The translations under genes and the position numbers were made by a program. 25,588 nt of DNA. Origin: an uncultured archaeon. Lineage in GTDB: Archaea; Asgardarchaeota; Lokiarchaeia; Sigyniarchaeales; SOKP01. Positions 1-5,600 of this stretch are shown one piece after another. The stretch is taken from contig CAZGJX010000059.1 in NCBI GenBank assembly GCA_964525635.1, positions 1 through 25,588 on the forward strand, in the 5' to 3' direction. Each line of letters starts with the position of its first letter. Positions within the stretch are counted from its first letter, which is position 1. The notes below the pieces were generated by a model. The model did not search any database. It was not told the origin of the DNA and saw only the letters and a list, made by a program, of their open reading frames with translations.

Positions 1-20
1 TTATTATAAAAGAAAGTAAT

Positions 21-315
21 ATGGAGGTATATAAGAATTATAGGACACTAAGAAAATTTAGATAATTTAGAAAATTTAAAAACATTAAATTTAAGCTATA
101 ATAATATCACAGCTATAAAGGGATTAGAAAGATTAGAGAATTTAGAGAATATAGACTTATCTTATAATCAAATCAAAGAAGTTACTGGTTTGGAAAATCT
201 AGAAAAATTAGAATATATTGATCTAGACCATAATCCTCTTCCTGATAATTTAAAAAAAATTGATGATGATGCTTTTTATCTGAAAGAATATTGTAGAACA
301 GGAGAATTACCCTAG
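21..315 (+). pseudogene. Leucine-rich repeat protein, truncated or frameshifted C-terminal fragment
   Basis: Frame 52-315 reads ENLDNLENLKTLNLSYNNITAIKGLERLENLENIDLSYNQIKEVTGLENLEKLEYIDLDHNPL...ELP* (SDS22-like LxxLxLxxNxI repeats). It is closed upstream by in-frame TAA at 49-51. The nearest upstream ATG (21) is in another frame. Confidence 0.75.
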
Positions 316-372
316 CTAATAATCTTATTCTCTTTATTGGTTTTTTACATTAAAAATCTTTCACGATCTTTA

Positions 373-409
373 TTCATGAAAGGTTCATGAAATGAATATT
401 AAAATCCTT
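373..409 (+). repeat. Degenerate copy (R0) of the cassette-leader motif
   Basis: TTCATGAAATGAATATTAAAATCCTT resembles R1 TTAATGGAAAATGAATATGAAATCAT. Its AAAATC box (401) lies 171 nt before ATG 572, matching the spacing of R1-R3. Confidence 0.5.
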
Positions 410-571
410 GCAATGGAATTATAAAAATAAGAAAATGTTAAACTAAGAAAATATAATTTTCATTAATTCTTATGTACTAATTAACATTCTTTATATTCAT
501 CAAAACCGATTTTATTAAAATTCTATCTTAATATTGAAAAAAAATAAATTATCAAAACACCTTATTATATT

Positions 572-781
572 ATGTCACTTGATAAATTTCCTGATTTAGT
601 CGAATTACCGACCAAAGAAAAAATACTGCTTGTGGAAAATTTATGGGATAGTATTAGATCTGAAATTATTACTAATCCAATACCTAAAAGTCATGAGGAA
701 GAATTAGATAAACGTCAAAATACTCTCAATAAAGATAATCTTTTATCACTTGAAGATCTAAAGAATCGAATTAAAAAATGA
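572..781 (+). CDS. Addiction-module antitoxin component (TIGR02574-like)
   Basis: 69 aa with the LPxxEKILLVENLWDSI...HEEELDKR pattern; overlaps the next gene by ATGA. Confidence 0.85.
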   Translation: MSLDKFPDLVELPTKEKILLVENLWDSIRSEIITNPIPKSHEEELDKRQNTLNKDNLLSLEDLKNRIKK

Positions 782-1095
782 AAATACATTATACTTTAAG
801 GTTTCACCCTGATATCCAAGGAGATCTTCAAGAAATTTACTCTTGGTATGAAAAAAAAATGTTTGGTCTTGGAGAAGATTTTCTTCAAGTCTTTTATTCT
901 AGTACAAAAGTAATTATAGAAAATCCCCTTCAATATCCTAAGATATATAGAAATTATCATCGATATTTACTTCAAAAATTTCCTTATGCTCTTTATTATA
1001 TTATTGAAAATAATCTAATTATTGTAATGGGTGTCTTTCATCATTCACGTGATCCACGAATGATTAAATCTGAATTGAGAAATAGAAAAGATTGA
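778..1095 (+). CDS. RelE/ParE-family type II toxin
   Basis: DLQEIYSWYE...GLGEDF...NPLQYP...KFPYALYY...VFHHSRDP is a typical ParE-like pattern; translationally coupled to the upstream antitoxin. Confidence 0.9.
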   Translation: MKIHYTLRFHPDIQGDLQEIYSWYEKKMFGLGEDFLQVFYSSTKVIIENPLQYPKIYRNYHRYLLQKFPYALYYIIENNLIIVMGVFHHSRDPRMIKSELRNRKD

Positions 1096-1416
1096 TAATC
1101 TTTTTTTACTATTAGTTATGTTATAGAAGATTTCATAAGATCAACTATTTTTAAAGATAGTATTTGATGATCTTAAAAAAAATAAATCTTTTTTATTCTG
1201 TCTTTCTTTAGAATTTTTTGAAAATCGGAATAATTACTTAAAATAACATATTTATGCAAACTATAACCTCTCTAATATTCAAAAATAATAAAAAATGAGA
1301 GAGGGGAATCGAATTTATGGGAATTGAACTTATATTCCTCAGAATAACATTTTTTTAATTGTATTTTTTTATTAACAATCTTATTAATAGAAATTTTTTT
1401 TTTTGAAAATAAGTTT

Positions 1417-1463
1417 TTAATGGAAAATATGGTTATTTTAATGGAAAATGAATATGAAATCAT
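1417..1463 (+). repeat. Cassette-leader motif copy R1
   Basis: TTAATGGAAAATATGGTTATTTTAATGGAAAATGAATATGAAATCAT; aligns without gaps to R2 and R3. Confidence 0.85.
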
Positions 1464-1624
1464 CGTATGGGGATAAAATACCTTTTCAATAATAAAAATC
1501 TGACAATTCTAGTTTCAAGGTAAAATAATTATATTATAAATATAAATTTATATGTGTAATTCCAATCTTATAATTAATTAGATACACAAATAAAATATAC
1601 AAATAAAAAGAGGAATGAAAAATT

Positions 1625-2383
1625 ATGTATTTTTGGAAACATTGGGACGTTACTCACGATAAACACGTTGTATGTAATCCCATGAGTAGTGAAAAAATAG
1701 ATGAATTAGTAAAACTTCTAAATCCTTATCTTTCAGCGGAATCTAAAATCGTAGATATAGCAATGGGAAAAGCAGAATTTATAATCCGTTTAATTGAGGA
1801 ATATAATCTCTCAGCTATAGGTATTGACCTCTCCCCTAAATTCTGTAAAGATGCCCAGGAAAATGTGAAAAAACGAATATCTAATGCAGATGTAGAACTT
1901 CTCGAAATGGATGGAGCAGATTATAAACCAAAGGAGTTAGAATCATTCGATTTGGTTTCATGTTTAGGTGCCAGTTGGATTTATGGAGGATATGAAGGAA
2001 CCCTAAAATATATGATGGAACTTACAAAGAAAGGAGGAATCGTGATAAGTGGTGAACCATATTGGAAATCTGCCCCTCCAGAAGAATATATTAAGATAGC
2101 AAAAGAATTATATGATGATTTTGGAGAATATGCTAGTCACTATGAAAATGTGCAAATTGGAGAAAAATTAGGTTTAAAGTTAGTTTACTCAATCGCAAGT
2201 AATTTAGATGATTGGGATAGATATATAGGGCTCCAATGGCACTCCACGGATGTCTTCGCTAAAGAACATCCTGATGATCCTGATCTAATTAAGATCTATG
2301 AGAAATTGGATAAAGAAAAAGAAGTATACTTTAATTGGGAAAGAGATCTTTTTGGTTGGGCAATTTATGTCTTTAGAAAATAG
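1625..2383 (+). CDS. Class I SAM-dependent methyltransferase (YjhP-like)
   Basis: VDIAMGKAE motif I, GIDLSP, FDLVSCLGASWIYGG, GEPYW, C-terminal FGWAIYV. Confidence 0.9.
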   Translation: MYFWKHWDVTHDKHVVCNPMSSEKIDELVKLLNPYLSAESKIVDIAMGKAEFIIRLIEEYNLSAIGIDLSPKFCKDAQENVKKRISNADVELLEMDGADYKPKELESFDLVSCLGASWIYGGYEGTLKYMMELTKKGGIVISGEPYWKSAPPEEYIKIAKELYDDFGEYASHYENVQIGEKLGLKLVYSIASNLDDWDRYIGLQWHSTDVFAKEHPDDPDLIKIYEKLDKEKEVYFNWERDLFGWAIYVFRK

Positions 2384-2646
2384 TATTTTTTCTTTAAATT
2401 TTGAAGCTAAAGATTTCTGAATAATAACGGAAATTTATAACTCTTCAATAAGAAAATCAGATTTAGGAATTAAGAAAATTTTTTTAACTGAATTTTATTT
2501 TGGAAAATGAACTAGATCACTTTGTTACCAAACCACATCTATCAAGTATTTCATATTCATTATTTTTTCTATATTCACTGAGTAAAAGAAAAGAAGTAAT
2601 ATAATCTATTTTTTTTCATATAGGAATTTACTTAATATATATATAC

Positions 2647-2693
2647 TTAATGGAAAAGGATTCTTTTTTAATGGAAAATGGAAAGGAAATCCT
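2647..2693 (+). repeat. Cassette-leader motif copy R2
   Basis: TTAATGGAAAAGGATTCTTTTTTAATGGAAAATGGAAAGGAAATCCT. Confidence 0.85.
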
Positions 2694-2851
2694 TCTGTGA
2701 TGATAAAAGGTTATTAGAATTATGAAAAATTAATAATGTTGTTTTTAAAAAAATGATAATAATTCCAAGAAATAAATTATAAATTTTTTTCCACCTTTCT
2801 TATTATAGTAAAATTTAATTAAATGGATATTCTTAACAATAATGAAGAAAA

Positions 2852-3085
2852 ATGAATGAATATATTGATCGAATTATTAGCGATCCAAGGATATTATCAG
2901 GAAAACCTGTTTTTAAAGGAACTAGGATTCCCATTTCTATTGTATTAACCATGTTACGGGATGGTGCTTCATTTCAAAAAATTATTGAAGAGTATCCACG
3001 ACTTACTGAAGAAGATATTAAAGCAGTTTTAGATTATTCTGTTTTTATTATTGACCATCCTGAAGAAGAAATAATCAATATTTAA
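2852..3085 (+). CDS. DUF433-family antitoxin (VapB45-like)
   Basis: RIISDPRILSGKPVFKGTRIPI...EEYPRLTEEDIKAVLDY is the DUF433 signature. Confidence 0.92.
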   Translation: MNEYIDRIISDPRILSGKPVFKGTRIPISIVLTMLRDGASFQKIIEEYPRLTEEDIKAVLDYSVFIIDHPEEEIINI

Positions 3086-3117
3086 TTCTGACTTTTAAAT
3101 TTTAAAGGATATCCATT

Positions 3118-3480
3118 ATGGAAATTATTATTGATGAATGCATTGCAAAATCAACAGGATTATGTTTAATAGACGCAGAATTTAAAATTATTAGAGTAGA
3201 GGATGTATTAAATCCTGGAGTTGATGATAAAAAGATATTTGAATATGCTAATAAAAATAATCTAGCGATACTTACTCATGATCGAGGATTTGGTGTGCTC
3301 TACCATTTTTCTAAAGATACTCATCCAACAGTTATAATACTTCAAGTTCTTTCTCCTCATCCTAAAGCAACTAATAATCTCTTAAAGAATACCTTATTAA
3401 AAATAGATTTAAATAAACCTAAATATCATAGAAAATTAATCATTGTTTCGAAAAAAAATATCAGAATAAGGTCAAAATAA
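3118..3480 (+). CDS. DUF5615 PIN-like toxin (VapC45-like)
   Basis: IIIDECI...DDKKIFEYA...ILTHDRGFG acidic PIN motifs; lies directly after DUF433. Confidence 0.88.
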   Translation: MEIIIDECIAKSTGLCLIDAEFKIIRVEDVLNPGVDDKKIFEYANKNNLAILTHDRGFGVLYHFSKDTHPTVIILQVLSPHPKATNNLLKNTLLKIDLNKPKYHRKLIIVSKKNIRIRSK

Positions 3481-3656
3481 TCTAAAATCAGTAAATAAAT
3501 TTAACTGGAAATTCCTTTTATTAGGAATTTGATTTCTTCATTTTTAATAAAAAATAATTAAAAATTAAAGAAAAAAATCATAATAATATTTATTAAAATC
3601 TATATTTTAATAATTTGGCAGATTAAATTGATATTATCCTATATAAAAGTTATTTT

Positions 3657-3703
3657 TTCATGGAAAAAAGTCTTTTTTTAATGGAAATTGAGAGTGAAAT
3701 CAT
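3657..3703 (+). repeat. Cassette-leader motif copy R3
   Basis: TTCATGGAAAAAAGTCTTTTTTTAATGGAAATTGAGAGTGAAATCAT. Confidence 0.85.
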
Positions 3704-3845
3704 AGTTTTACGCACTCTTGTATATATGAATATATGATATAAGTGATATCTATACTACTTATTTTCCAAATTTCTGATTTAAAAAAATAGAGTAAAAACA
3801 GAGATTTAAATAAAACGAGTTTTTTAAATAATAAGAAGAACTAAA

Positions 3846-3850
3846 GGAGG
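3846..3850 (+). promoter_or_regulatory. Shine-Dalgarno-like GGAGG upstream of a probable ATT start
   Basis: AAAGGAGGT lies 10 nt upstream of in-frame ATT at 3861. Confidence 0.55.
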
Positions 3851-3860
3851 TCCGTTTTTA

Positions 3861-5600
3861 ATTACAAAAAATAATAAATCTTCAAGAATTACTATAGGGA
3901 TTCTTATACATTATATTGATGATCCCTATGCTGAGATGTTATGTGAAGGGATTGAAAAGGTGGCAATAGAACAAGATATTAATACAATTTATTTTATGGG
4001 AGGAAATCTTGGAAAATCCCCTGATCCTTACGCAATAAGATCTAATATTATATATAACTTAGCTGATAGTTCTAATGTTGATGGACTAATTATTAGTTCT
4101 GCAATAATAAGTAATTTTATTACAAAAGATAAAATGGAAGAATTTGTAAAACAATATAAAGATATCCCCAAAGTAAGTCTTGGAATGTCAATACCTGATA
4201 CAATAAATATATTAATTAATAATAAGAAAGGTATGAAGGAAGTTATTAGTCATTTAATTGAAGTTCATAAAATCAAGAAAATTGCTTTTATTAAAGGCCC
4301 TGAGGATAATTTGGATGCCAAAATACGTTTTAGGGCATATCAGGAGATTTTAGAGGAGTTAAATATCCCATATGATCCAGAATTAGTAATACAAGGTAAT
4401 TTCACAGGGGTTAGCGGTAAAAATGGTACTGTTGCACTTCTTGATAATGGTATTGACTTTAAAGCGATAGTAGCTGCTAATGATGAAATGGCTTTAGGGG
4501 CGATTCATGAATTAAAAAAAAGAGGATATGGAATTCCCAAAGATTTCTTAGTTGTTGGATTTGATAACATTTTCACAAGTAAATTCTCTACTCCTTCTTT
4601 AACAACAGTTAAACAACCTATATATGAACAAGGTAGAAAAGCTATGGAGACAATTATCTCCTTAGTTAAAGGCCAAGATAAAGTTGAAGATATAATCTTA
4701 TCAACTAAATTAGTAATACATAAATCATGTGGTTGTTATCCTAAATCAATGGTTGAAAATATCTTAGATACTCATTTAAAATCAAAAGAATCTGAAAGTG
4801 ATTTAGCTATTGATCTAAATAAAATTATTTCAGAAATTCAAAAATCAAACATTTATGAAAATTTTAAAATGAATCCAATATTAGTTCAAGATTTATTAAC
4901 TACTTTTATTGAGGATATTTCAGGAAAAAAGGAAGATTTCTTTTTAAAAAAACTAAATGAATTAGTTGATGATTTAATAACAATTGATTCAGATTTAAAA
5001 GATTGGAAAGACATTCTTTCAATGTTTAAGAATTTTTCTTTAATCTATAAATCTAATAGCAAGATTAAGGCGAGAGCTGAATATATATTGCTTAAAGCAA
5101 ATAATCTTATTAATGATACAATTGAACAATTTGATTTTTTTAAATCTCATCAAGACTATAAAATGATTATTAATTATGCTAGAGCAACTACTTCTTTGAA
5201 TTCATGTTATGATCTCTCAAAAATAAATGATATTATTTCAGAAACATTTCCTCGTTTAGGTCTCAATTATACATACATCTCTTTGTATGAAGGAGAGACA
5301 TTACCACCAGAAGAGACTAGATTAATTGCTGCTTTTAATTTAAATAAACAAATTAATTTACCTGAAAAGGGAGTACTTTTTAAAACAAAGCAATTAATAC
5401 CAGATGATTTCTTCCCAAAAAATGAGAGATATAGCTTTTTTATTGAATCGCTTCATTTTAGAAATGAACCTCAATATGGATTTGCTATTTATGAACTTAA
5501 ACCAGATATAATACATTTTGATTTAAGAGGCCACCTTGGTAATACCATAAAAGGAGCATTTTTACAAAAAGAGCTTACAGATTTAAAAAACAAATCATGA
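3861..5600 (+). CDS. LacI/periplasmic-binding-protein-fold sugar sensor lacking HTH and output domain
   Basis: NKKGMKEVISHLIEVH..KKIAFIKGP, AANDEMALGA, VVGFDN, LTTVKQPIYEQG, SCGC. The frame is open upstream of ATG 3936 (ITKNNKSSRITIGILIHY...) back to TAA 3825. The start position is inferred. Confidence 0.85.
   Translation: MTKNNKSSRITIGILIHYIDDPYAEMLCEGIEKVAIEQDINTIYFMGGNLGKSPDPYAIRSNIIYNLADSSNVDGLIISSAIISNFITKDKMEEFVKQYKDIPKVSLGMSIPDTINILINNKKGMKEVISHLIEVHKIKKIAFIKGPEDNLDAKIRFRAYQEILEELNIPYDPELVIQGNFTGVSGKNGTVALLDNGIDFKAIVAANDEMALGAIHELKKRGYGIPKDFLVVGFDNIFTSKFSTPSLTTVKQPIYEQGRKAMETIISLVKGQDKVEDIILSTKLVIHKSCGCYPKSMVENILDTHLKSKESESDLAIDLNKIISEIQKSNIYENFKMNPILVQDLLTTFIEDISGKKEDFFLKKLNELVDDLITIDSDLKDWKDILSMFKNFSLIYKSNSKIKARAEYILLKANNLINDTIEQFDFFKSHQDYKMIINYARATTSLNSCYDLSKINDIISETFPRLGLNYTYISLYEGETLPPEETRLIAAFNLNKQINLPEKGVLFKTKQLIPDDFFPKNERYSFFIESLHFRNEPQYGFAIYELKPDIIHFDLRGHLGNTIKGAFLQKELTDLKNKS

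Follow-up and report, generated by a model that had tools for sequence, protein, structure and literature searches.

A repeated palindromic site marks the joints of exchanged and re-ordered gene cassettes in a genus of Lokiarchaeia

Introduction

Integrons, the textbook gene-capture device, are defined by IntI and attC. The pdif modules of Acinetobacter plasmids, which often carry toxin-antitoxin (TA) pairs, and integrative mobile elements exploiting Xer (IMEX) are Xer-dependent and use a recombinase supplied in trans. In the dif sites of archaea and bacteria, a 6-nt spacer separates two inverted arms, and cleavage takes place at its ends (PMC8371274, PMC2958812). By attC and IntI criteria, sedentary chromosomal integrons and clusters of attC sites lacking integron-integrases (CALINs) have been reported in Archaea, including Asgard archaea (Ghaly et al. 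2022, PMC9668308); Data S1 of that report holds seven Lokiarchaeia entries, all from other lineages, four of which have 2-4 attCs. Here we describe a composite intergenic repeat, termed T1, which was noticed in one contig of an uncultured archaeon of the Lokiarchaeia (order Sigyniarchaeales). The entire contig (C59, 25,588 nucleotides) is referred to as the window.

T1 lies at the joints between cassettes, and these cassettes are exchanged among species and occur in changing order. These joints concentrate mostly at one edge of a palindromic core, the spacer/right-arm boundary, and arrays of such cassettes occupy several chromosomal places. Each cassette begins with the right arm of a core, continues with its own promoter and its cargo, and closes with the sequence from the T-run through the spacer of the next site. 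Functionally, the closest described systems are sedentary chromosomal integrons and CALINs; we found no description of the T1 site, or of such arrays in Lokiarchaeia, in the literature searched.

Genomes and searches

The source genome, G000 (4.45 Mb in 245 contigs, 26.8% G+C, 100% complete by marker count), was compared with its three congeners, G001, G002 and G003; contigs are denoted by C and a number. A T1 profile was built from the first fuzzy matches and run with nhmmer at a cut-off of at least 22 bits. Site anatomy was derived from an alignment of 105 T1 copies from the four genomes. The orientation of the next gene was scored over 80 copies, and the strict core pattern and stacked cores over 100 copies. 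The cargo census covers 76 open reading frames (ORFs) on twelve G000 array contigs. A second, related repeat family is named T2.

Design of the T1 site

T1 spans about 60 bp in the window copies, and about 75 bp where conservation runs past the core. In all, the order is a T-run of 5-9 residues, box A, a stretch of eight nucleotides (N8), box B, 3-4 nt and the core. Box A is TTTTCCATGGAAAA, with the variants TTTTTCATGG or TTTTTAATGG, and box B is TTTTAATGGAAAAT. The core is a palindrome with a 7-6-7 layout, either CGTGAAA-N6-TTTCACG or TGCAAAA-TAACTG-TTTTGCA. Its arms co-vary and the palindrome is kept, (C)GTGAAA being paired with TTTCAC(G) and TGCAAAA with TTTTGCA; some sites are hybrids of the two. 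The strict 7-6-7 pattern fits 43 of 100 copies. Spacers are of 39 kinds, TAACTG being the most frequent, and extended arms are found at position 733 of G000 contig C199 (12-14 nt) and at T2-type sites (11-14 nt). To the 3' side of the right arm, either unique sequence follows at once, as in many TTTCACG copies, or there is a conserved module of 100-250 nt with a further conserved box near +215. N8 is hypervariable, with 82 sequences in 105 copies; it is swapped even between copies in which both flanks are 98% identical, like a short patch exchanged alone.

Folded as single strands, canonical copies form two hairpins: in one, boxes A and B pair across the N8 loop, and the other is the core (z-scores -4.3 to -4.7; none of 200 shuffles folds as well). 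A reading of the window made from the sequence alone (hereafter the sequence-only reading) had stated that the site is not palindromic; this is wrong for canonical T1, as box A/N8/box B and the core are each an inverted repeat. Covariation within the box stem was considered and rejected, since box B shows no compensating change where box A varies (CC to TC or AA); for this reason the boxes are read as protein-binding words rather than as a stem.

Two further identities were rejected. A structured RNA or known RNA family is not supported, as Rfam yielded no match in the window, and RNAalifold together with a column-pair scan of 36 downstream modules recovered the core hairpin and no other covariation. 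A solitary CRISPR repeat was considered because some variants have ATTGAAAG-like ends, yet the CRISPR repeat of this genome is a different 37-mer, and T1 copies are spaced by 1-20 kb, unlike the 25-50 nt of CRISPR spacers. The CRISPR array itself, with the 37-nt repeat ATAGCATAGAAAATAGCTTCATAAAGAAGATTGAAAC, is divided over two contig ends of G000 (C81:1-400 and C240:1-200).

T1 copies form co-oriented arrays

The profile detects 53 T1 copies in G000, and T1 arrays take up about 2-3% of the genome. Of 25 pairs of adjacent copies, 24 share one strand, and the median distance between neighbours is 2158 bp. The arrays break short-read assemblies: 41 of the 53 sites are on contigs shorter than 16 kb, which make up 23.6% of the assembly. 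Twenty metagenome contigs carrying the pattern match G000 at about 100% identity and stem from the same population; they scaffold its small contigs, for instance C213-C103-...-C225, C231-C139-C205, C152-C167 and C214-C192-C162. These joins indicate that the arrays are longer than the assembly shows, that there are several of them and that ordinary genes border them.

The pattern is confined almost entirely to one genus. At two or fewer mismatches it has 43 matches in G000 and 22, 5 and 25 in the congeners, and the reversed control has none in either search. In 37 other genomes of the order there is one match, with two mismatches (reversed control, 0), and exact matches among 185,579 species genomes occur in the three congeners only. 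No viral contig contains the pattern, and a phage or plasmid carrier was rejected on this ground.

The cargo is rich in TA parts, which include PIN (six), MazE (four), ParE (two), VapB (two) and UPF0175 (two) proteins, HepT with a nucleotidyltransferase (MNT), and three AbiEii-type AAA_21 proteins. A histone-deacetylase-like enzyme, an aldo-keto reductase, a GNAT protein, a CAAX protease, methyltransferases, Pst/PhoU parts and two DDE transposases are also present. A gene for a 553-residue DDE_Tnp_1 protein is found twice inside T1 arrays in a cassette-like setting (G000 C103:9997-11655 and C167:4020-5678).

The gene located 3' of T1 is co-oriented with the site in 39 cases and opposite in 41. 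Co-oriented genes start 80-1000 nt from T1, with a small cluster at 175-195 nt that includes the three of the window, and some convergent genes terminate 31-76 nt past box B. Given this even split and the variable start distances, T1 is not a leader tied to the next gene, and the proposal of a shared regulatory leader at a fixed distance fails across the family. A transcription factor (TF) regulon was likewise rejected: position and orientation are not fixed family-wide, and a near-constant distance of 165-169 nt is seen in the window only.

Exchange of cassettes between species and changes in their order

Between genomes, dozens of the segments that lie between sites reach 90-100% identity. 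Single contigs of G001, for instance, hold cassettes that are 98.3%, 97.3% or 91-94% identical to G000 amid segments showing 65-80% identity, so that mis-binning is not the cause. Cassette order varies as well. The cassette designated C139:3 has a different neighbourhood in each of G000, G001 and G003, and within G000, paralogous copies of one cassette precede different sites (C31, C103 and C152). Site pairs have a common upstream flank in 24 cases and a common downstream flank in 20, and both flanks are common in one.

Where two sites share the upstream flank only (15 pairs), similarity remains at 0.73-0.93 from box B across the left arm to the end of the spacer and then falls to the background level (0.38-0.54) at +28 to +30, which is the spacer/right-arm boundary. 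About 70-85% of the upstream-linked switches fall within this 3-nt stretch out of about 56 bp. Each type of left arm plus spacer is joined to several unrelated right sides, many of which read TTTCACG followed by unique sequence. Six pairs have just the downstream flank in common, and all of them belong to the commonest type.

In G000, the cassette with 98.3% identity starts at a box-less core (ATCGTGAAA-TAACTG-TTTTGC); in G001, a full T1 takes the place of this core. In both genomes the cassette ends at ...GTGAAAGGACAGTTT. Behind 3 of 100 T1 copies, where about 0.3 would be expected, a box-less core is stacked at a distance of 40-200 nt, which corresponds to a gene-less mini-cassette. In one copy, N8 and each of the two flanks have different nearest relatives.

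The sequence-only reading had suggested a recognition or recombination site of a cassette array, and the data agree with it in several respects: matches are grouped in co-oriented arrays, cassette identity and order vary across relatives, homology stops within the motif, the motif is not placed before syntenic core genes and shuffled sequence yields no pattern match. Neither a recombinase nor a reverse transcriptase was found flanking the arrays examined, which is why a capture system is spoken of here in conditional terms.

T1 copies and genes in the window

The features of the window are listed in Table 1. An ungapped 47-nt pattern matches the plus strand at exactly three places (1417-1463, 2647-2693 and 3657-3703), compared with no match in 100 dinucleotide-preserving shuffles, so that the three copies originally noticed are real. 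The 10-mer TTAATGGAAA by itself occurs 18 times against 12.7 expected, which is no enrichment; the signal hence resides in the composite. A fourth, degenerate copy had been proposed at 373-409, where there is instead a T2 family member on the opposite strand. The spacing of the GAAATC box from the next start was measured correctly (169, 166 and 165 nt before 1625, 2852 and 3861), although its constancy does not extend beyond the window. Pfam matches bear out the unit types as first read, namely TA pair, methyltransferase, TA pair and sensor.

Table 1 Features of the window. Positions are those of the 25,588-nucleotide contig.
Feature	Position	Strand	Details
T2 site	359-396	-	TTCATGAA boxes 384-391 and 373-380, TAAAGAT, left arm CGTGAAA 365-359; right arm degenerate
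Cassette block 1	497-1449	+	Own promoter region, TA pair, 3' non-coding module, left part of T1 copy 1
Unstab_antitox antitoxin	572-781	+	Pfam
ParE toxin	778-1095	+	Pfam
3' non-coding module of block 1	1285-1416	+	Common to one T1 subfamily
T1 copy 1	1414-1472	+	Box A 1414-1427 (TTTTTAATGGAAAA), N8 1428-1435, box B 1436-1449; nhmmer 38 bits
Degenerate core of copy 1	1453-1472	+	TATGAAA 1453-1459, spacer TCATCG 1460-1465, right arm TATGGGG 1466-1472
Cassette 2 cargo, class-I S-adenosylmethionine (SAM) methyltransferase	1625-2383	+	Pfam
T1 copy 2	2646-2702	+	Box A 2646-2657, N8 2658-2665, box B 2666-2679; nhmmer 36 bits
Degenerate core of copy 2	2683-2702	+	AAGGAAA 2683-2689, spacer TCCTTC 2690-2695, right arm TGTGATG 2696-2702
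Cassette 3 cargo	2852-3480	+	DUF433 antitoxin-like 2852-3085, DUF5615/PIN-like toxin 3118-3480; Pfam
T1 copy 3	3654-3712	+	Box A 3654-3667 (TTTTTCATGGAAAA), N8 3668-3675, box B 3676-3689; nhmmer 43 bits
Core of copy 3	3693-3712	+	AGTGAAA 3693-3699, spacer TCATAG 3700-3705, right arm TTTTACG 3706-3712
Gene after last T1, LacI-type periplasmic-binding-domain "sensor"	3861-5600	+	Pfam

Cassette block 1 is 93% identical to G003 C573:410-1344, whereas the flanking ordinary genes match the congeners at 68-78%. This identity stops just past box B of copy 1, at position 1449, and the shared block takes in about 75 nt upstream of its first gene. A homologue of the cassette 2 methyltransferase (69%) adjoins an array of G001 in reverse orientation. 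The spacer of copy 2 recurs in intact cores (CGTGAAA-TCCTTC-TTT(C/T)ACG) in G000 C180, G001 C158 and G002 C106. Copy 3 is the final site ahead of a conserved flank. Its spacer is shared with the core CGTGAAA-TCATAG-TTTCACG, which is located upstream of the orthologous gene in G003 C242 and is also present at position 2706 of G002 C248.

The sensor gene opens a stretch syntenic with G002 and G003 and shows 55% amino acid identity to their orthologues. A search of 25 genomes from 12 other genera gave no match at E≤1e-30, and the gene, judged from these searches, is specific to the genus, so that an outgroup locus for an empty-site test is lacking. The start originally read at 3861 is an ATT codon, 8 nt after AAGGAGGT (window 3845-3863), and the first ATG lies at 3936. 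However, the Pfam match begins at residue 11 of the reading from 3861 and the frame is open for 590 residues, which makes an N-terminal extension beyond this ATG plausible. The gene seems to start at ATT 3861; from ATG 3936, the Pfam domain would lose its first strand.

The contig begins within a gene for a leucine-rich-repeat (LRR) protein (window 1-314). LRR repeats also end contig C54, and such repeats probably break the assembly. Contig C54 carries 22 of the 32 tRNA genes called by ARAGORN in G000, a sizeable tRNA gene array; many of these genes follow one another head to tail, a few dozen bases apart.

A related repeat family and an order-wide core

In T2, two TTCATGAA boxes 11 bp apart precede TAAAGAT and a CGTGAAA-N6 core, which is the T1 plan in miniature. 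The same plan is repeated at C58:3144 and C118:4242 of G000, where T2 has five copies at seven or fewer mismatches. The congeners have dozens of copies, 88-100% identical, in arrays with a spacing of about 1 kb between small ORFs. In G001, T2 arrays are found on contigs C1, C15 and C24; on C1, two of them converge on genes for a secreted cellulase and a subtilase.

The bare core, CGTGAAA-N6-TTTCACG with at most one mismatch, is present in all 25 genomes of the order that were searched, which makes the core older and wider in distribution than the boxes. It totals 157 matches in these genomes, compared with 14 for the reversed control (about 11-fold). Outside the genus (G030, G011 and G008), the listed core copies are on separate contigs or far apart. 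Inspection of 20 core sites, 18 of them in other genera, placed the core mostly in long non-coding stretches, at times 40-80 nt ahead of the start of a gene. Only one locus, in G030, has matches on both sides; its flanks are syntenic with a congener and show no cassette variation, and the core was consequently rejected as a synteny breakpoint in this other family. G030 has an intergenic repeat of its own, about 120-230 nt long and in more than 30 copies, one of which (C2:255230-255460) lies 60 nt from a core.

Recombinases of the four genomes

A search with PF00589 recovered one full-length tyrosine recombinase in each of the four genomes. Its open frame is 309-315 residues long, and 307 residues are left when the first ATG is used. 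The gene has the same three-gene neighbourhood in all four genomes, with no T1 or T2 copy within 6-8 kb. This sole intact tyrosine recombinase looks like the housekeeping XerA. G000 also has a tyrosine recombinase fragment at the edge of contig C211.

An integrase adjoining the arrays was rejected as a candidate, none being found at the array edges examined; the array borders and the middle of the G001 T2 arrays hold ordinary genes and no recombinase. Three serine recombinases are encoded by G000 (C51, C22 and C1), none of them on an array contig; those on C51 and C22 have TnpB genes within 2-3 kb, an arrangement like that of IS607-type elements. A search for Y1 (HUH) transposases with PF01797 gave no match in G000 and did find the family in six control genomes.

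Discussion

The arrays share many traits with integrons and CALINs. They consist of short cassettes delimited by one co-oriented, lineage-specific repeated site, carry TA-rich and odd accessory genes and mostly have no integrase nearby; relatives share cassettes in a different order, the junction is at the edge of the site and gene-less cassettes occur. The site itself is different. The 105 aligned copies have neither R''/L''-L'/R' arms nor RYYYAAC/GTTRRRY cores, and T1 has instead two direct or inverted "CATGG" boxes and the 7-6-7 palindrome. No IntI-type integrase was found beside the arrays examined, and the one intact tyrosine recombinase of each genome lies away from them. Moreover, T1 cargo is divided about equally between the strands and brings upstream regions of its own; integron cassettes, in contrast, mostly share one orientation and lack promoters. 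Several T1 arrays are found per genome.

Compared by architecture, the T1 core resembles the dif/XerA system in being an inverted repeat with a 6-nt spacer. In contrast, dif is single-copy, and T1 is multi-copy and has additional box repeats and the hypervariable N8. The pdif sites alternate in inverted orientation, unlike the direct arrangement of nearly all adjacent T1 pairs. Repetitive extragenic palindromes and bacterial interspersed mosaic elements (REP/BIME), as well as miniature inverted-repeat transposable elements (MITEs), are also multi-copy, hairpin-forming intergenic repeats with modular subfamilies. However, no REP-associated tyrosine transposase (RAYT/Y1) is encoded by G000, and T1 is uniformly oriented and delimits exchanged gene segments.

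Whether T1 undergoes site-specific recombination at its core appears to us evenly balanced. In such a process, cassettes would move through recombination at the 7-6-7 core, and boxes A and B would be putative accessory (arm-type) protein-binding sites. Catalysis would take place in trans, as the absence of a recombinase linked to any array examined suggests. The first candidate would be the single intact tyrosine recombinase of each genome, read as XerA, because dif sites are likewise inverted repeats with a 6-nt spacer, at the ends of which they are cleaved. Two direct sites may recombine to excise a circle with one whole site, which may re-insert at any other site. This circle model would explain the uniform orientation of the sites, and cargo genes with promoters of their own could be carried on either strand.

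Several observations weigh against this mechanism. The three copies in the window have degenerate cores and fold poorly (z-scores -0.25 to -1.85), and the left end of the 93% identical block, at 497, is not at any site. Several pairs switch just past box B rather than at the core, and N8 is swapped independently of both flanks; such scatter of breakpoints could come from homologous recombination within the 60-bp repeat. The type of left arm plus spacer and that of the conserved downstream module are strongly linked, and free exchange at the core would erode such a linkage. The 39 kinds of spacer differ between sites, and classical two-strand tyrosine recombination does not tolerate differing spacers. 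No precise gain or loss of one cassette was seen between genomes in the data compared. Lastly, no recombinase was found at any array edge examined, although the assemblies are fragmented and a gene may be unassembled.

As the main alternative, T1 might be a functional, conserved intergenic element, with cassettes being exchanged by homologous recombination over its copies and no dedicated recombinase involved; the T-run would be a terminator, and the boxes and the palindrome would be TF sites followed by a TATA-like box. We regard this as rather unlikely. It would account for breakpoints that are not restricted to one position, for the lack of a linked recombinase and for the run of 5-9 T residues ahead of box A. 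An AT-rich, TATA-like string located within 12 nt in about 9 of 16 right sides of the "CACG" kind, counted by eye, would speak for a promoter, as does the location of the palindrome in other genera, in long intergenic regions and at times 40-80 nt before a gene start. Nevertheless, homologous recombination would spread the upstream-linked switches evenly over about 56 bp, whereas some 70-85% of them are in 3 nt, and it sits poorly with stacked box-less cores and gene-less mini-cassettes. As to a promoter, the orientation of the gene after T1 is random, and the convergent genes that end 31-76 nt past box B leave no room for one; an operator of a regulon would leave the uniform site orientation in arrays unexplained.

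The idea that T1 and its downstream module of about 100-250 nt form a selfish element multiplying within accessory islands, MITE-like or a small RNA gene under a promoter of its own, with the cassette pattern as a by-product, is improbable in our view. T1 and module subfamilies do evolve as units, and the additional conserved box near +215 points the same way, as does the many-copied repeat that G030 has beside the same palindrome at a syntenic locus. Yet no terminal inverted repeats or target duplications were seen, there is no Rfam match in the window and no covariation in the modules, and a Y1 (HUH) transposase gene is lacking in G000; many copies have no module at all, unique sequence following directly after TTTCACG, and entire gene segments, beyond the repeat alone, change context. 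Least credible, to the point of being nearly dismissed, is a plain TF site before syntenic core genes, or a chance product of AT-rich DNA. Short A/T-rich words do recur in a genome of this base composition, as the unenriched 10-mer illustrates, but the full pattern is absent from shuffles and from reversed-pattern controls, the genes flanking it are non-syntenic between relatives and its copies are concentrated in arrays.

Overall, we read the arrays as an integron-like cassette system without an integrase. There is a considerable chance, though below even, that they represent an undescribed class of site-specific system in Lokiarchaeia, an analogue of integrons that would have arisen independently of IntI and attC; its core, found order-wide, would have gained two accessory boxes and a hypervariable loop and expanded into arrays at several loci in this genus, with XerA or an unrecognised recombinase acting in trans. 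Because the site lacks the attC consensus, the arrays would probably be missed by attC/IntI surveys. Short core oligonucleotides together with XerA make a directly testable substrate. What the arrays present is an integron-like population outcome in an Asgard archaeon, reached with a different site design and with no integron integrase found. If the exchange proceeds by homologous recombination, a dedicated non-coding repeat can stand in for an integrase. If it is site-specific, the T1 arrays would be a second cassette system of independent origin, found in the lineage of archaea that stands nearest to eukaryotes and with a core that can be traced throughout the order.

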